A stretch of DNA of 32,000 bases from Haloplanus halophilus (GTDB lineage: Archaea; Halobacteriota; Halobacteria; Halobacteriales; Haloferacaceae). The notes beneath the pieces were generated by a model. That model was not told the DNA's origin and did no database searches. It saw nothing but the letters and a program-made list of their open reading frames with translations. The translations under genes and the position numbers were made by a program. Location: positions 1,987,998 through 2,019,997 of the forward strand of contig NZ_CP098514.1 of the NCBI RefSeq assembly GCF_023703775.1, written 5' to 3'. This document shows, one piece after another, positions 24,044-28,959 of this stretch (position 1 is its first letter; every line of letters begins with the position of its first letter).

Positions 24044-24742
24044 ATGTCCTCGTGGAGACGCGACGTGGCCAGCGGACTCGTGGTTCTCGTGCCCATCCTC
24101 GTGATCCTGTTCGTCCTCAACTGGCTGTACTCGAAGGTGGCGGACCTCCCCGTCGTCGACACGCTCCCCCCGTACTACGGCGTGCCCGTCGCCATCGTGG
24201 TGTTCGCCATGCTGGTGCTGTCGGTCGGCTACCTGATGCGGACGACGGTCGGTCGGCTGTTCGAGCGCGGCCTCGACAGCGCGATGAACCACGTCCCCCT
24301 CATTCGGGTGCTGTACAACGCCTCGAAACTCGCCGTCGAGACGGCGCTCACCGGCACCGAGGACCTCCAGAAACCGGTGCGCCTGGAGACGTGGCCCGGC
24401 ATCAACATGACCGCCTTCAAGACTGGGCAGACGACGGCCGACGGCAAGGAGGTGCTGTTCATGCCCACCGCGCCCAACATCACCACCGGCTTCGTCATCG
24501 AGGTGGCCCCCGAGCGCATCGAGGAGACCGGCGAGAGCGTCGAGGAAGCCCTGACGCGCATCCTCAGCGCCGGGTTCGCGGAGGACGAACACGCGAAGGG
24601 CATCGAAATCGCCGTCGAGGACGCGGTGAACGACGGCGAGGAGTCACGCTCCTCGGGAACTGACGGCGAGGAGTCACGCTCCTCGGGAACTGACGGCGAG
24701 GAGTCACGCTCCTCGGGAACTGACGGCGGCGCGAACGACTAG
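24044..24742 (+). CDS. DUF502-family membrane protein with repeat-expanded acidic C-terminal tail
   Basis: 232 aa with two N-terminal TM helices. The conserved core is [12 protein letters not shown]-like, ...TGFVIEV.... The tail is ([10 protein letters not shown])x3. Confidence 0.85.
24632..24729. repeat. Perfect in-frame tandem repeat, 30 bp x 3.3, inside the DUF502 gene
   Basis: The unit gacggcgaggagtcacgctcctcgggaact occurs at 24632-24661, 24662-24691 and 24692-24721, with a partial copy at 24722-24729. It contains the inverted repeat GAGGAG-tcacg-CTCCTC. Confidence 0.95.
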
Positions 24743-25695: not shown

Positions 25696-25928
25696 CCTCC
25701 GAGCGTAGGCGTGCGCTTCTCGGCCGGATCGCGTCGCGAGAAGTCGTCGTATCGAGCGACATGAGTTGGTGTAATTTGGCCCAATCCGGTCTTAACAGTT
25801 TCCGTGCCGCGTTCCTCGACGCCGACCGCTCCGTCGACCCCTGGGGGTTCGGGGTGGATTGCGGGTCCACGGAAATAGTGAAGTGGAATCGGGTGTGAGG
25901 TGGGCGTGAGCCCGCCGGTTCGGGCATG
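25696..25928 (+). promoter_or_regulatory. Probable CRISPR leader
   Basis: This 233-nt non-coding stretch lies between the ilvE start and repeat 1. It is visibly less GC-rich (tgtaatttggcccaatccggtcttaacagtttcc, ggaaatagtgaagtggaatc). Its position upstream of the array follows from repeat orientation and from the decayed repeat at the opposite end. Confidence 0.55.
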
Positions 25929-26558
25929 GTTTCAGATGGACCCTTGTGGGGTTGAAGCGGACTCAAAGACGACCAAGACGCCGACAAGGATCGTGTTTCA
26001 GATGGACCCTTGTGGGGTTGAAGCAACGTCCTCAGCACCAGCGCAACCGGCTCCGTGGCCGCGTTTCAGATGGACCCTTGTGGGGTTGAAGCTACGTCGC
26101 CGCTAACGCGACCGACGAAGTCCGTCGGGTTTCAGATGGACCCTTGTGGGGTTGAAGCTTGGACCGGCTGGTTTCCGTCCGGACTGCCGCCATCCGGTTT
26201 CAGATGGACCCTTGTGGGGTTGAAGCAAGGAGATGGCCCCGCACCTGACAACCGCTCACGCTGTTTCAGATGGACCCTTGTGGGGTTGAAGCAGCAGTCG
26301 CGGGAGTAACGATCACCGGAGTCACCGCGTTTCAGATGGACCCTTGTGGGATTGAAGCCACGGACTACCGACGACGTCTCGGAACTGGTCGAGCGTTTCA
26401 GATGGACCCTTGTGGGGTTGAAGCGCGTCGCAGGTCGTACAGGTCCCCCAGCGCGTCGATCGTTTCAGATGGACCCTTGTGGGGTTGAAGCCAGCCGGAG
26501 GACGGTGTGGCCCTTCAGGTGCGCAACCGTTTCAGATGGACCCTTGTGGGGTTGAAGC
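25929..26558 (+). CRISPR. CRISPR array, type I-B-like 30-nt repeat, 10 repeats / 9 spacers
   Basis: The repeat is GTTTCAGATGGACCCTTGTGGGGTTGAAGC. Copies start at 25929, 25995, 26063, 26129, 26197, 26263, 26329 (G23A variant), 26395, 26462 and 26529. Spacers are 36-38 nt and all unique. From memory, the repeat is close to the Haloferax volcanii I-B repeat GTTTCAGACGAACCCTTGTGGGATTGAAGC. Confidence 0.97.
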
Positions 26559-26576
26559 AAACGCCGTTCTCGGCGT
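26559..26576 (-). terminator. Possible vapBC-1 terminator hairpin abutting CRISPR repeat 10
   Basis: ACGCCG-ttct-CGGCGT lies at 26561-26576. On the minus-strand RNA the stem is followed by UUUGCUU, which runs into repeat 10. It is 22 nt past the vapC stop. Confidence 0.35.
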
Positions 26577-26597
26577 GGGATGGACAGCGTATGAGCG

Positions 26598-26999
26598 TCA
26601 GGAAGTGAGAACGACGTCCACGTCGGCGATCTCGCGGAGGGGTGCTTTGTCGAAGTCGTTCTTGTTGTGGGTGACGAACGTGCCGCCGGCCTCGTGTGCC
26701 GTGGCCAGATTCAGGAGGTCCACGGGATCGAGCTTCACGCCTTGGGACTGAAGTTTTTCGTCGAGATAGGCGGCTTCGAGCGCGGTGTCAGCGGTGAACG
26801 GAAGTATCCGGTCGAGACTCGACCGGAGGTGTTGGTGTTCCCTGAGCATGTCGCTCCGGCTGCCGTGGCGCTGAAACGATTCCCAAGCGACGTGAGATGG
26901 AATGGTCCATTCGTCGGTTCGGTACTGCTTGAGATGCTGAACCACCGATTTCTCGGAGTTTCGGAGTTTCACCAGAACGTCTCTGTCAAGAACGATCAT
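26598..26999 (-). CDS. vapC: PIN-domain toxin VapC (cassette 1)
   Basis: 133 aa. It has MIVLDRDVL (N-terminal Asp) and LDPVDLLNLATAHEAGGTFVTHNKNDF (C-terminal PIN acidic residues). Its start is directly adjacent to the antitoxin stop. Confidence 0.85.
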   Translation of the reverse strand: MIVLDRDVLVKLRNSEKSVVQHLKQYRTDEWTIPSHVAWESFQRHGSRSDMLREHQHLRSSLDRILPFTADTALEAAYLDEKLQSQGVKLDPVDLLNLATAHEAGGTFVTHNKNDFDKAPLREIADVDVVLTS

Positions 27000-27215
27000 C
27001 TACCGGCGGTTCTCCAGCGATTCGTTCAGTCGTTCGCGGTCTTCGTCCATCTGCTCGATATCTTCCTCGTCGACAGGCGGAAGTGACTCGGCTATCGCTT
27101 CGACGTCTTTCTCGCTCCGGCTGAGTCGGTCCAGTAGGTCGTTGAAACTCTCGTCGTCCCGCTTCAGGTCTCGAAGCCGCTCTTTCACGTCGTCGGTGAC
27201 TCGTATCGTGCTCAT
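27000..27215 (-). CDS. vapB: VapB-type antitoxin (cassette 1)
   Basis: 71 aa, MSTIRVTDDVKERLRDLKRDDESFNDLLDRL. It shares this N-terminal motif with the second antitoxin and lies immediately upstream of the PIN gene. Confidence 0.8.
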   Translation of the reverse strand: MSTIRVTDDVKERLRDLKRDDESFNDLLDRLSRSEKDVEAIAESLPPVDEEDIEQMDEDRERLNESLENRR

Positions 27216-27261
27216 GTGTATACAGTGTGTACGAAGGAGTGTATGGGTTTCGGTGGTCAGA

Positions 27262-27287
27262 GCCAGTCGACTTTCTCGATCCCGCGC
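27262..27287 (-). promoter_or_regulatory. Conserved upstream block of vapB (copy 1)
   Basis: GCCAGTCGACTTTCT is followed by CGATCCCGCGC. The 15-mer begins exactly 47 nt upstream of the vapB-1 ATG, the same offset as copy 2. It contains the palindrome AGTCGACT. Confidence 0.5.
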
Positions 27288-27295
27288 TGTTGCGC

Positions 27296-27325
27296 GTTTC
27301 AGATGGACCCTTGTGGGATTGAAGC
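27296..27325 (+). CRISPR. Isolated intact CRISPR repeat (R11) between the two TA cassettes
   Basis: GTTTCAGATGGACCCTTGTGGGATTGAAGC is 29/30 identical to the consensus and identical to the R7 variant. It lies 737 nt after R10 and 2 nt before the vapC-2 stop codon. Confidence 0.9.
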
Positions 27326-27327
27326 GG

Positions 27328-27723
27328 TTAGTTTCGGTACTCGTCGATGTCGACGACCCGCTTCGTCTTGGGATGTGTGAGGTCGCGGTCCGACGAGACG
27401 ACAGGCGCGTTCAGTTCTCGGCCGACGGCGGCGATAAGGCCATCCGCCCCCGCGAGAAACGGTCCCTGTGGCCCGATTTCGTCGGCGATCACCCCGGCAA
27501 CCTCCGACGTCTCCGTCCCCGTCTCGTAGACTTCTCCCCAAGAGAGGTCGGCTTTCGCCTCAGCCACATCGCCGTCCGGGTCGTTCCCTTCTCCGACGAG
27601 GACTTCAGCGTAGGCCGGTGCTGGAAGGATGAACCGGTCGTTTTCGTTGGAAAGCAGGTACTCGGCGGTGGCGTCAACACCGTTCAGGTAGTCGATGAGA
27701 AACGTCGCGTCGAGTACTTTCAT
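27328..27723 (-). CDS. vapC: PIN-domain toxin VapC (cassette 2)
   Basis: 131 aa with MKVLDATFLIDYL and LIAAVGRELNAPVVSSDRDL. Its start overlaps the antitoxin stop (ATGA). Confidence 0.85.
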   Translation of the reverse strand: MKVLDATFLIDYLNGVDATAEYLLSNENDRFILPAPAYAEVLVGEGNDPDGDVAEAKADLSWGEVYETGTETSEVAGVIADEIGPQGPFLAGADGLIAAVGRELNAPVVSSDRDLTHPKTKRVVDIDEYRN

Positions 27724-27959
27724 CCGTCATCCGCCAGCCGACGAGTCCGCTCTTTCGACTTCTGCGTGGATTTCTCGCGGGCGTCTCGGACGCGGTCGGC
27801 GTGTTCGTCTGACCACCGACCAAACCCGGCGAGCAGGTCGCGGTCGTCTTCGAGCATACGCCGTAGCACGTCGTTGTAGCTCTCCCCCTCCCTCCGCCGA
27901 CGGTCCAGTTCTCGCTTCACCGTGTCGCTCACTCGAATCTGTTCGTCAGCGGTTGACAT
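27720..27959 (-). CDS. vapB: VapB-type antitoxin (cassette 2)
   Basis: The internal ATG at 27959-27957 of ORF 27720-28094 gives 79 aa, MSTADEQIRVSDTVKRELDRRRREGESYNDVLRRML. It is the same family as the cassette 1 antitoxin. Confidence 0.8.
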   Translation of the reverse strand: MSTADEQIRVSDTVKRELDRRRREGESYNDVLRRMLEDDRDLLAGFGRWSDEHADRVRDAREKSTQKSKERTRRLADDG

Positions 27960-28005
27960 CTTACGTTGACGTTGGCGTTGACACGGCTTAGTCGTTGGGC
28001 TTCGG

Positions 28006-28039
28006 GCCAGTCGACTTTCTGGCGCTCTCGATCCTGCGC
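28006..28039 (-). promoter_or_regulatory. Conserved upstream block of vapB (copy 2)
   Basis: GCCAGTCGACTTTCT is followed by an 8-nt insert and then CGATCCTGCGC. The 15-mer again begins exactly 47 nt upstream of the vapB-2 ATG. Confidence 0.5.
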
Positions 28040-28171
28040 CACCGGAGAAAACGTCCCCCGACGGTGATCGGGAAACGTCTCCGGATCGTTCCACCTGCCC
28101 CCGTCACAGACCAGCGACGGACCACGACCCCCGGCGCACCTGAGGGACGCTCCTCGTCGACGATGTCTCCG

Positions 28172-28201
28172 GTTTCAGACGGCACCCTCGTGAGGTTGCC
28201 C
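28172..28201 (+). CRISPR. Degenerate terminal CRISPR repeat
   Basis: GTTTCAGACGGCACCCTCGTGAGGTTGCCC aligns with the repeat at about 24 of 31 columns with one indel (GTTTCAGA, GG, ACCCT, GTG and GGTTG blocks kept). It is in the same orientation, 846 nt after R11. Confidence 0.6.
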
Positions 28202-28287
28202 TCCGACAACGACGATCGGGTGATCCAGATACGACGTTTCGGGCGGGCGTTGGCGGCGGTGCCCGATTCGGCGCGAGCGCCCCGCCC

Positions 28288-28959
28288 TCACGCCAGCGCC
28301 TCGACCAGCGCCGCCCCCTCCACGAACGGCACGTCGTGTCGTCGGGCGTACGTCCGCGCGTCGGCCGTCGAGAGCGCCCCGCCGGTGTCGTCGTCGAGCA
28401 TCTCACAGCCGGCGACCGCAGGGGCGACGCCGGCCTCGCGGGCCAGCGCCAGCCCCAGTTCCGTATGGCCGCGGCGCTCGCTCAGGAGTCCCGGTGCCGC
28501 CCGGAGGAGGTGGACGTGGCCCGGCGTCCGGAACTCCGCCGCGAAGTCGTCGACGCCGTAGTCGTCGTCCCCGCTCACCTCGCCGAGACGGCGGATGGTC
28601 AGCGCCCGGTCGTCGTCGGTCACGCCGGTGAAGCCGTCGCGATGGTTGACCGTCAGCGAGAACGACGGATGGGCGTCGTACCCCAGGTCGGTGTGGTCGT
28701 TCGCTGGGTGGTCGAGTTCCTCGTGGAGGAAGGGCAGGTCGAACCGCTCGGCGACGGCGTCGGTGAGGGCGACGAAGACGAGGCCGCCGCCGTCGTTGCG
28801 CAGGCGTCCGACGGCCGCCGGCGTCACCGCGCTCGCGGGATAGAGGAGGTCGGTCTCTCCCTCGCGGTCGTCGGCGTCGTGAACGAGCACCGGGTCGCCG
28901 TCGCGGAAGGCGGCGACGACCCGGTCGAGCGCGCCGACCGCCTCGCTCCGGCCCCGCAT
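28288..28959 (-). CDS. ribB: 3,4-dihydroxy-2-butanone 4-phosphate synthase
   Basis: The internal ATG at 28959-28957 of ORF 28288-29571 gives 223 aa, ...VLVHDADDREGETDLLYPA...GHVHLLRA...RRGHTELGLALA.... It starts 2 nt after the ribK stop. Confidence 0.9.
   Translation of the reverse strand: MRGRSEAVGALDRVVAAFRDGDPVLVHDADDREGETDLLYPASAVTPAAVGRLRNDGGGLVFVALTDAVAERFDLPFLHEELDHPANDHTDLGYDAHPSFSLTVNHRDGFTGVTDDDRALTIRRLGEVSGDDDYGVDDFAAEFRTPGHVHLLRAAPGLLSERRGHTELGLALAREAGVAPAVAGCEMLDDDTGGALSTADARTYARRHDVPFVEGAALVEALA

Follow-up and report, generated by a model that had tools for sequence, protein, structure and literature searches.

Two vapBC operons within fragments of integrative elements as probable oversized pseudo-spacers of a haloarchaeal CRISPR array

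CreTA of Haloarcula hispanica is a toxin-antitoxin (TA) module with an RNA toxin and an antitoxin that resembles a CRISPR RNA (crRNA); it is located in the cas operon and depends on Cascade. In the Sulfolobales, vapBC pairs are interspersed among the cas gene cassettes, and a role in maintenance has been proposed (Garrett et al., PMC4390879). Tn7-like elements in cyanobacteria target CRISPR repeats (PMC11837452). In Sulfolobus islandicus LAL14/1, a plasmid fragment of approximately 2 kb, SiL-E1, lies precisely between two repeats (Jaubert et al. 2013; PMC3718332), and was proposed to come from faulty processing of a protospacer or from recombination with a pre-existing spacer (PMC3718332). In the literature, SiL-E1 was the sole described equivalent that we found for the locus analyzed here, an array between ilvE and ribB in a 32,000-nucleotide (nt) stretch of Haloplanus halophilus DNA (the window; GC content of 70.8%) in which two vapBC TA operons take the place of spacers.

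Our best explanation is that this is a type I-B-style array in which the two oldest "spacers", of 737 and 846 nt, are very probably internal fragments of int-vapBC elements. Both units are best read as oversized pseudo-spacers of the SiL-E1 kind. An earlier reading of this stretch (the original prediction) had offered several options, and giant spacers fit best, as the units are in spacer positions and framed by repeats.

Two vapBC operons framed by CRISPR repeats

The array had a regular part and two oversized intervals. Ten perfect or near-perfect copies of the 30-nt direct repeat GTTTCAGATGGACCCTTGTGGGGTTGAAGC (R1-R10) were separated by nine unique spacers of 36-38 nt, within the range of 34-40 nt, and were preceded by a conserved leader. 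An eleventh repeat (R11), identical at 29 of 30 positions, on the same strand, and with the G23A change that is also found in R7, was 737 nt further on, and a decayed copy was 846 nt beyond that. This layout agreed with the original prediction. All 11 repeats (R1-R11) passed the gathering score of Rfam CRISPR-DR24, a family of haloarchaeal type I-B repeats. Positions in the window, strands, and the basis for each assignment are:

25814-25928, plus strand: CRISPR leader, with a conserved core at approximately 25838-25928 (alignment to five other array leaders)
25929-26558, plus strand: regular part of the array, R1-R10 and nine spacers (repeat matches, Rfam)
26559-27295, plus strand: pseudo-spacer 1, 737 nt, probable fragment of an int-vapBC1 element (homology to L089-L092)
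26598-26999, minus strand: vapC1, predicted PIN-domain toxin of 133 amino acids (Pfam PF01850, E = 7e-10)
27000-27215, minus strand: vapB1, predicted antitoxin of 71 amino acids (Pfam PF02697, E = 1e-11)
27296-27325, plus strand: repeat R11, with G23A (repeat matches, Rfam)
27326-28171, plus strand: pseudo-spacer 2, 846 nt, probable fragment of an int-vapBC2 element (homology to L093 and L094)
27328-27723, minus strand: vapC2, predicted PIN-domain toxin of 131 amino acids (Pfam PF01850)
27720-27959, minus strand: vapB2, predicted antitoxin of 79 amino acids, overlapping vapC2 by 4 nt (Pfam PF02697, E = 6e-15)
28172-28201, plus strand: degenerate terminal repeat, R12 (24 of 31 columns, shuffle tests)
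28202-28287: trailer, up to the ribB stop codon
28288-28964, minus strand: ribB

Each long interval contained one intact minus-strand operon, with the gene for a VapB antitoxin followed by that for a PIN toxin, as the original prediction had described and as the Pfam matches confirmed. In both pairs the PF01850 toxin gene was directly downstream of the small PF02697 antitoxin gene; vapB1 and vapC1 are directly adjacent (TAG-ATG). Both operons are thus predicted type II VapBC modules. The ratio of nonsynonymous to synonymous substitution rates (dN/dS) was 0.09-0.17 for vapC1 and 0.09-0.24 for vapB1 (five relatives), and 0.11-0.15 for vapC2 and 0.15-0.22 for vapB2 (two relatives). Based on these values (0.09-0.24 overall), all four genes, which are intact, are under purifying selection.

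The decayed copy behaved as a terminal repeat in its sequence and in its position. It matched the repeat in 24 of 31 aligned columns (edit distance of 7). When the 2 kb downstream were shuffled 2000 times with dinucleotides preserved (plus strand), two shuffles had an equally good match, as did 1 of 150 shuffles of the whole window (both strands), indicating that the similarity, for which the original prediction had proposed such a check, is beyond chance. The copy was 86 nt from the ribB stop codon. In two orthologous arrays from metagenomes the terminal repeat was 32 nt (L136) and 76 nt (L157) from that codon, so the decayed copy is where a terminal repeat is expected. These numbers bear directly on a more ordinary view of the locus, in which the decayed copy resembles the repeat by chance, R11 is a lone stray, and an array of ten repeats simply has TA genes as ordinary neighbors. 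The seven edits in the decayed copy are consistent with that view, as is the fact that TA and integrase genes are common near arrays (our scan of trailer flanks, below; PMC4390879). Against it are both shuffle tests, the position of the copy, and R11 itself, a 29 of 30 match on the same strand with sharp junctions on both sides. We consider this view very improbable.

The leader of the array aligned with those of five others, including the two orthologous arrays (L157 and L136) and three unrelated I-B arrays (L110, L132, and L122). The neighbors of the array were ilvE, a DUF502 gene, ribB, and the riboflavin kinase gene, in the same order as in relatives that have no array. Two Pfam scans, which covered part of the open reading frames (ORFs) of the window, revealed no cas genes among thirteen ORFs outside both units, and thus none adjacent to the array among those scanned. 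Ten of the thirteen were housekeeping genes or had no Pfam match. For these thirteen ORFs, the description of the array as cas-less in the original prediction is borne out. Separately, the 3' end of the DUF502 gene (24044-24742, plus strand) contained three perfect tandem copies of a 30-nt sequence (24632-24728), such that ten residues are encoded three times.

Origin of the two units and history of the locus

Both units appear to be internal fragments of int-vapBC elements and not whole insertions. Pseudo-spacer 1 had 91-92% nucleotide identity to four metagenomic int-vapBC loci (L089, L090, L091, and L092) over 26588/26596-27297, and pseudo-spacer 2 had 92% identity to two int-vapBC contigs (L093 and L094) over 27325-28020. 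In every context of a VapC1 homolog that we fetched, vapB was preceded by a tyrosine-integrase gene or its remains (L006 from H. marismortui, L007 and L008 from H. quadrata, and L090, L091, L092, L218, and L219). The gene order in these relatives was int-vapB-vapC, and their integrase ended in ...GGWEDWDTFREHYLGAYSLDAQQRGMEKVDWL*. The original prediction had pointed to a conserved block common to both units and had seen no transposase, terminal inverted repeats, or target duplication. The block is real (27262-27295 and 28006-28039). It is not anonymous, being the 3' end of the tyrosine-integrase gene, and a reading without any sign of a mobile element did not hold up: both units carry integrase 3' ends and their relatives are int-vapBC elements near a tRNA 3' fragment. 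The pieces of integrase found in the units are:

27257-27295, minus strand: integrase 3' remnant 1, (N)AQQRGIEKVDWL then a stop, cut at the first base of R11; 11 of 13 residues match the L091 integrase (tblastn)
28001-28120, minus strand: integrase 3' remnant 2, decayed, approximately 40 codons, PSLVCDGGRWNDPETFPDHRRGTFSPVAQDRERQKVDWPE; 52% identity to the H. quadrata integrase (tblastn, E = 5e-7)
28122-28160, plus strand: inverted integrase piece (HDLRRTWGTLLVE box); 33 of 39 nt match L091, with a score of 48-51 compared to a shuffle maximum of 26

Remnant 1, read from 27298 to 27257, leaves the last 13 codons of the integrase gene upstream of vapB1. The region of remnant 2 was also matched by L006 (blastn). 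We had considered the shared block as part of a small independent ORF and as the attachment (att) site of a mobile vapBC cassette (based on GTCGACYGG repeats in L001), and dropped both ideas because full integrases were seen upstream of vapB.

Judging from gene order in the relatives, members of the int-vapBC family are small integrative elements with which a fragment of a tRNA 3' end is associated. L093, the closest relative of unit 2, had a tRNA 3' end, a decayed integrase gene, vapB2, and vapC2, in that order, and L092 had a similar tRNA 3' fragment approximately 560 nt beyond vapC. There was no intact integrase gene and no att or tRNA remnant in 25696-28290, no terminal inverted repeats bounding either unit, and no transposase ORF, and neither unit has the features of an insertion sequence (IS) or transposon insertion. 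Nor does either look like an integrated tyrosine-recombinase element, with integrase stubs of only 13 and approximately 40 codons and no att site. According to the original prediction, mobile-element termini around each unit would have made the locus a trivial insertion; the origin from integrase elements goes part of the way in that direction, but there were no element termini, so this is not a simple insertion. Integron-like capture, another of its options, does not fit: we found no intact integrase and no attC-like site, and each unit has kept its own conserved vapB upstream region and is bounded by CRISPR repeats. Both fragments begin within the integrase 3' end, take in the vapBC upstream region and the two genes, and stop 39 nt (unit 1) or 2 nt (unit 2) past the vapC stop codon, and each would be roughly the smallest piece able to serve as a self-contained TA unit.

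The GC content was 57.8% for pseudo-spacer 1 and 63.0% for pseudo-spacer 2, lower than the 68.8% of the flanks, pointing to a foreign origin. VapC2 was 100% identical to one H. halophilus protein in a homolog search, whereas exact sequence look-ups of VapC1 and VapC2 had no recorded entry. Homologs of VapC1 with 84-92% identity were found in Haloarcula, Halomicrobium, and many hypersaline metagenomes. A collection of viral contigs had no match to the exact repeat, VapC1, VapC2, or the integrase, and searches of plasmids found nothing beyond ordinary vapBC2 homologs.

Some int-vapBC relatives were themselves arranged in tandem. Units of an integrase stub plus TA genes, without CRISPR repeats, were found in L001 (5729-7367), L006 (6432-6623), and L090 (1453-1684), where the genes after vapBC were a MazE-type pair or a further integrase gene. 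This arrangement suggests that members of the family may integrate and decay repeatedly at single sites.

The array at the ribB-ilvE site is probably old, and the vapBC units appear to be later additions in this lineage. We compared 80 loci around ilvE homologs. The order rfk-ribB-ilvE-DUF502 was uninterrupted in the closest relatives, Haloplanus sp. C73, three Haloplanus metagenome-assembled genomes, and Salinirarus, with a gap of 65-235 nt between ribB and ilvE and no array or vapBC. The conserved promoter region of ilvE stopped at approximately 25813, which, together with the array-free relatives, indicates that approximately 25814-28287 is an insertion. Two metagenomic orthologs had an array at this site, as the original prediction had proposed to look for. 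In L157 (90% nucleotide identity in ilvE and 80% in ribB/rfk), there was a leader, a repeat, one spacer, a repeat, and then 76 nt to the ribB stop codon. L136 (approximately 80% identical) had a leader of the same family, 11 repeats, and then 32 nt to that codon. Neither array contained vapBC, and no spacer was common to the arrays of the window, L157, and L136. These results indicate that the array predates the units, that its spacers turn over, and that the vapBC units are specific to this lineage. The complete turnover of spacers among the three arrays argues that Cas proteins would have acted on the array in the window and that it is adaptation-competent. The persistence of L136 and L157 without TA genes speaks against a further option in the original prediction, in which the array would depend on TA modules that addict the cell to it.

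Arrays of this lineage have sampled the int-vapBC family. Spacer 4 of L136 matched L092 (684 to 649) at 34 of 36 nt. This protospacer has a TTC directly 5' of it and is in the PDDEXK_16 gene of an int-vapBC1 element. L092 is also the contig whose vapBC1 homolog has 91% identity to pseudo-spacer 1. In the I-B system of Haloarcula hispanica, the protospacer-adjacent motif (PAM) is TTC, which was found 5' of 94% of new protospacers (PMC3936756). We infer that arrays at the ribB-ilvE locus took ordinary spacers from the int-vapBC family using TTC; spacer turnover and a protospacer with this PAM are what is expected of an array lineage that is active in adaptation. A weak 20-nt match of L136 spacer 1 to vapC was dismissed, as it had no PAM, and the spacers of the array in the window had no match to int-vapBC loci beyond chance. 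A spacer common to two other metagenomic arrays, those of L147 and L175, matched the integrase gene of int-vapBC1 (L090/L091, 40-61) at 21 of 22 nt.

Junctions with the repeats and routes of capture

Element similarity reached R11 from both sides with no unaccounted bases. To the right of R11, the vapC2 stop codon was 2 nt from the repeat and homology to L093 and L094 ended at the repeat. Where that homology ends, L093 and L094 read TAA-CC-GAA-CTCC, so that in the orientation of the array the fragment, GGTTAGTT..., would have been preceded by 5'-TTC-3'. Thus, unit 2 has a TTC PAM in its source-like DNA at the leader-side end, and both the side and the strand are correct. This PAM reads as GAA on the coding strand, where that trinucleotide accounts for 2.2% of positions in source-like DNA. 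To the left of R11, homology of unit 1 to L089-L092 continued to 27297, overlapping the repeat by 2 nt.

The two outer junctions were less tidy. Between R10 and the start of homology to relatives at 26588, which is 10 nt past the vapC1 stop codon (itself 39 nt from R10), there were 29 unaccounted nt:

26559-26587: 29 nt without a homolog, including the hairpin at 26561-26576; a divergent 3' untranslated region or a spacer remnant

The hairpin begins 2 nt after R10, as noted in the original prediction, which had emphasized how closely both units follow the preceding repeat; the spacing was correct for both, and the fold was not significant (z = -1.7). Before R12 there were 10 unaccounted nt in addition to the inverted integrase piece. 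This piece carries an in-frame stop and is on the strand opposite to that of the adjoining remnant at 28001-28120. The interval 28121-28171 is 51 nt, the exact length of integrase codons 66-82, which suggests that the piece may have arisen by an in-place inversion of approximately 49 nt. We considered the possibility that the decayed repeat is part of a plus-strand integrase remnant and dropped it because the integrase alignment ended at 28160. An inverted-repeat match between spacer S9 and the inverted piece was attributed to chance.

Of the routes that could have placed the fragments between repeats, we prefer capture by the adaptation integrase, and hold this tentatively as possible. In this scheme, the array would have been present first, with its Cas machinery taking spacers from the int-vapBC family via the TTC PAM. 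Twice, and rarely, Cas1-Cas2(-Cas4) would have integrated a long fragment that ended at a PAM and had not been trimmed. The insertion, at the leader-proximal repeat, would have duplicated that repeat in the usual way. Such capture accounts for the full flanking repeats, the sharp junctions at R11, the side on which the PAM is found, the absence of element termini, and the connection with an array that samples the element. Ordinary spacers would later have been lost by recombination between repeats, whereas deletion of a unit with a stable PIN toxin and a labile antitoxin would kill the cell. Both units would therefore outlive their contemporaries and come to adjoin each other beside the degenerate terminal repeat, with the trailer end locked. 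Addiction of this kind accounts for the survival of only TA-bearing units, together at the oldest end and with the intervening ordinary spacers lost, and we regard retention by addiction as rather probable. The operons are antisense to transcription of the array, such that any read-through precursor crRNA would be antisense to the vapBC mRNA. Taken as a whole, the account that combines the identity of the units, capture by the adaptation integrase, and retention by addiction seems to us evenly balanced between right and wrong.

Several observations weigh against capture by the adaptation machinery. Both units share with canonical spacers a foreign origin and a location between two repeats; at 737 and 846 nt, they are approximately 20 times longer than a I-B spacer and outside the 34-40 nt set by the Cas1-Cas2 ruler, and we know of no in vivo demonstration that a fragment of this size (0.7-0.8 kb) is integrated. 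When metagenomes were scanned with the repeat, 80 loci were found, and of 2297 other spacer intervals in these 80 arrays none had a length from 80 to 8000 nt. A prior normal spacer that recombined with the element would explain the PAM evidence equally well. The junction of unit 1 with R11 coincides with a deletion breakpoint seen independently in L218 (approximately 2690-2785) and L219 (approximately 80-177), where the integrase gene has lost an internal stretch between two CTCGAC motifs, with the same 3' breakpoint, and there are 2 nt of microhomology; the argument from a flush junction is therefore weaker at this site. Relatives all carry a conserved CCGAACCCCGCCCACCAACC... in place of the 29 nt without a homolog at 26559-26587, so the PAM evidence applies to pseudo-spacer 2. 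Lastly, the far end of unit 2, with its inverted 39-nt piece and 10 unexplained nt, looks like an untidy rearrangement.

Some of these features are what would be expected if a circular int-vapBC element had undergone homologous recombination with one or more pre-existing anti-element spacers, after which the TA unit blocked loss. This route, which the authors of the SiL-E1 study put forward (PMC3718332), could have involved a single crossover and a subsequent deletion, or a double crossover at two neighboring spacers. Spacers against the int-vapBC family are indeed present in arrays of this lineage, the PAM-adjacent start of pseudo-spacer 2 has the exact look of a former normal spacer, and secondary illegitimate deletions would fit both the untidy far end of pseudo-spacer 2 and the microhomology between pseudo-spacer 1 and R11. 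However, after a double crossover each pseudo-spacer should have a TTC at 34-40 nt from its 3' end, and there is none: in pseudo-spacer 1 the distances are 44 and 20 nt, and the last 70 nt of pseudo-spacer 2 contain no TTC. The single crossover would need a later deletion flush with the next repeat, twice, and the homology on offer is only 36 bp. We think that recombination with a former spacer is unlikely.

A different sequence of events starts from whole int-vapBC elements that inserted at or in the trailer-end repeats, for example with the repeat as a secondary attachment site, and were then trimmed to the TA unit. The integrase remnants beside both operons and the CRISPR-free tandem relics of integrase stub and TA genes in L001, L006, and L090 are consistent with this, as are genes found next to the trailer ends of other arrays. 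In L116 (469-1164 in the original orientation, 237-893 when flipped), an unrelated I-B array ends in a degenerate terminal repeat, and a full-length integrase gene of the int-vapBC family starts 27 nt beyond it. In L137 (40-592 in the original orientation), the array has 88 repeats, and a gene similar to vapC1 (58% identity) was 119 nt past the last of them and antisense to the array, as in the window; the contig ends inside vapB. Of 141 ORFs from 36 trailer flanks, Pfam assigned 2 to PIN, 3 to integrase domains, and 3 to Cas6, so that approximately 5 of 36 trailer flanks had PIN or integrase domains. On the other hand, the attachment sequence of the family is the tRNA 3' end beside the element and is not near vapC or in the integrase 3' end, there is no att remnant in the window, the L116 integrase gene is in the opposite orientation relative to the repeat, and up to four deletion endpoints would have to fall at repeat boundaries while leaving R10 and R11 perfect. 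Insertion followed by decay thus seems quite unlikely. As a separate observation, the L116 integrase gene is followed by a convergent pair of ORFs that by eye look like a DUF433-type antitoxin and a PIN-like toxin, and the contig ends there.

Returning to capture by the adaptation integrase, we propose, with considerable doubt, that a I-B adaptation integrase may rarely insert gene-sized DNA in vivo and that captured selfish TA operons may then become undeletable "fossil spacers". If so, arrays would be occasional sites of gene capture, and TA modules would be permanent anchors of the trailer end. If the adaptation machinery placed the fragments, then Cas1-Cas2 would not be strictly bound by length in vivo and could move whole genes, which would matter both for the origin of CRISPR from casposons and for the use of Cas1-Cas2 to record or integrate DNA. 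A selfish addiction module exploiting an array in this way would escape deletion between repeats and persist while the normal spacers next to it turn over. Array-finding programs would end the array at R10 and annotators would list two "ordinary" vapBC pairs, so similar cases may go unnoticed. The I-B system of Haloarcula hispanica is genetically tractable, making the idea directly testable.

Comparison with known systems

The two units differ from the other known associations between TA genes or mobile elements and CRISPR systems. Like the vapBC pairs of the Sulfolobales, they are VapBC addiction modules physically linked to CRISPR-Cas components; those pairs are between cas gene cassettes, whereas the units described here are between repeats, and orthologous arrays persist without TA genes. 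They share with CreTA an association with a haloarchaeal type I-B system and differ in being predicted protein type II modules that come from mobile elements and have no evident dependence on Cas. As with insertions of Tn7-like elements or IS, foreign DNA interrupts an array at or near repeats, but here there is no transposase, no terminal inverted repeats, no target duplication, and no complete element.

The closest likeness is to SiL-E1. In both cases, kilobase-scale fragments of mobile elements that are absent from relatives lie between complete repeats, and element similarity extends as far as a repeat, which in the window holds on both sides of R11. Of the four junctions in the window, two are imperfectly accounted for, and one has the PAM evidence described above. 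In contrast to SiL-E1, the units here are two in tandem, at the trailer end of a haloarchaeal I-B-type array with no cas gene among the scanned ORFs around it, and each is little more than a vapBC operon and an integrase stub, which would provide a reason for retention. With SiL-E1 as the sole equivalent found, this locus would be the second one described with pseudo-spacers on the kilobase scale and the first in which they carry addiction genes, and what it would add to SiL-E1 is the tandem arrangement of the units, the TA cargo, and the evidence for a PAM.

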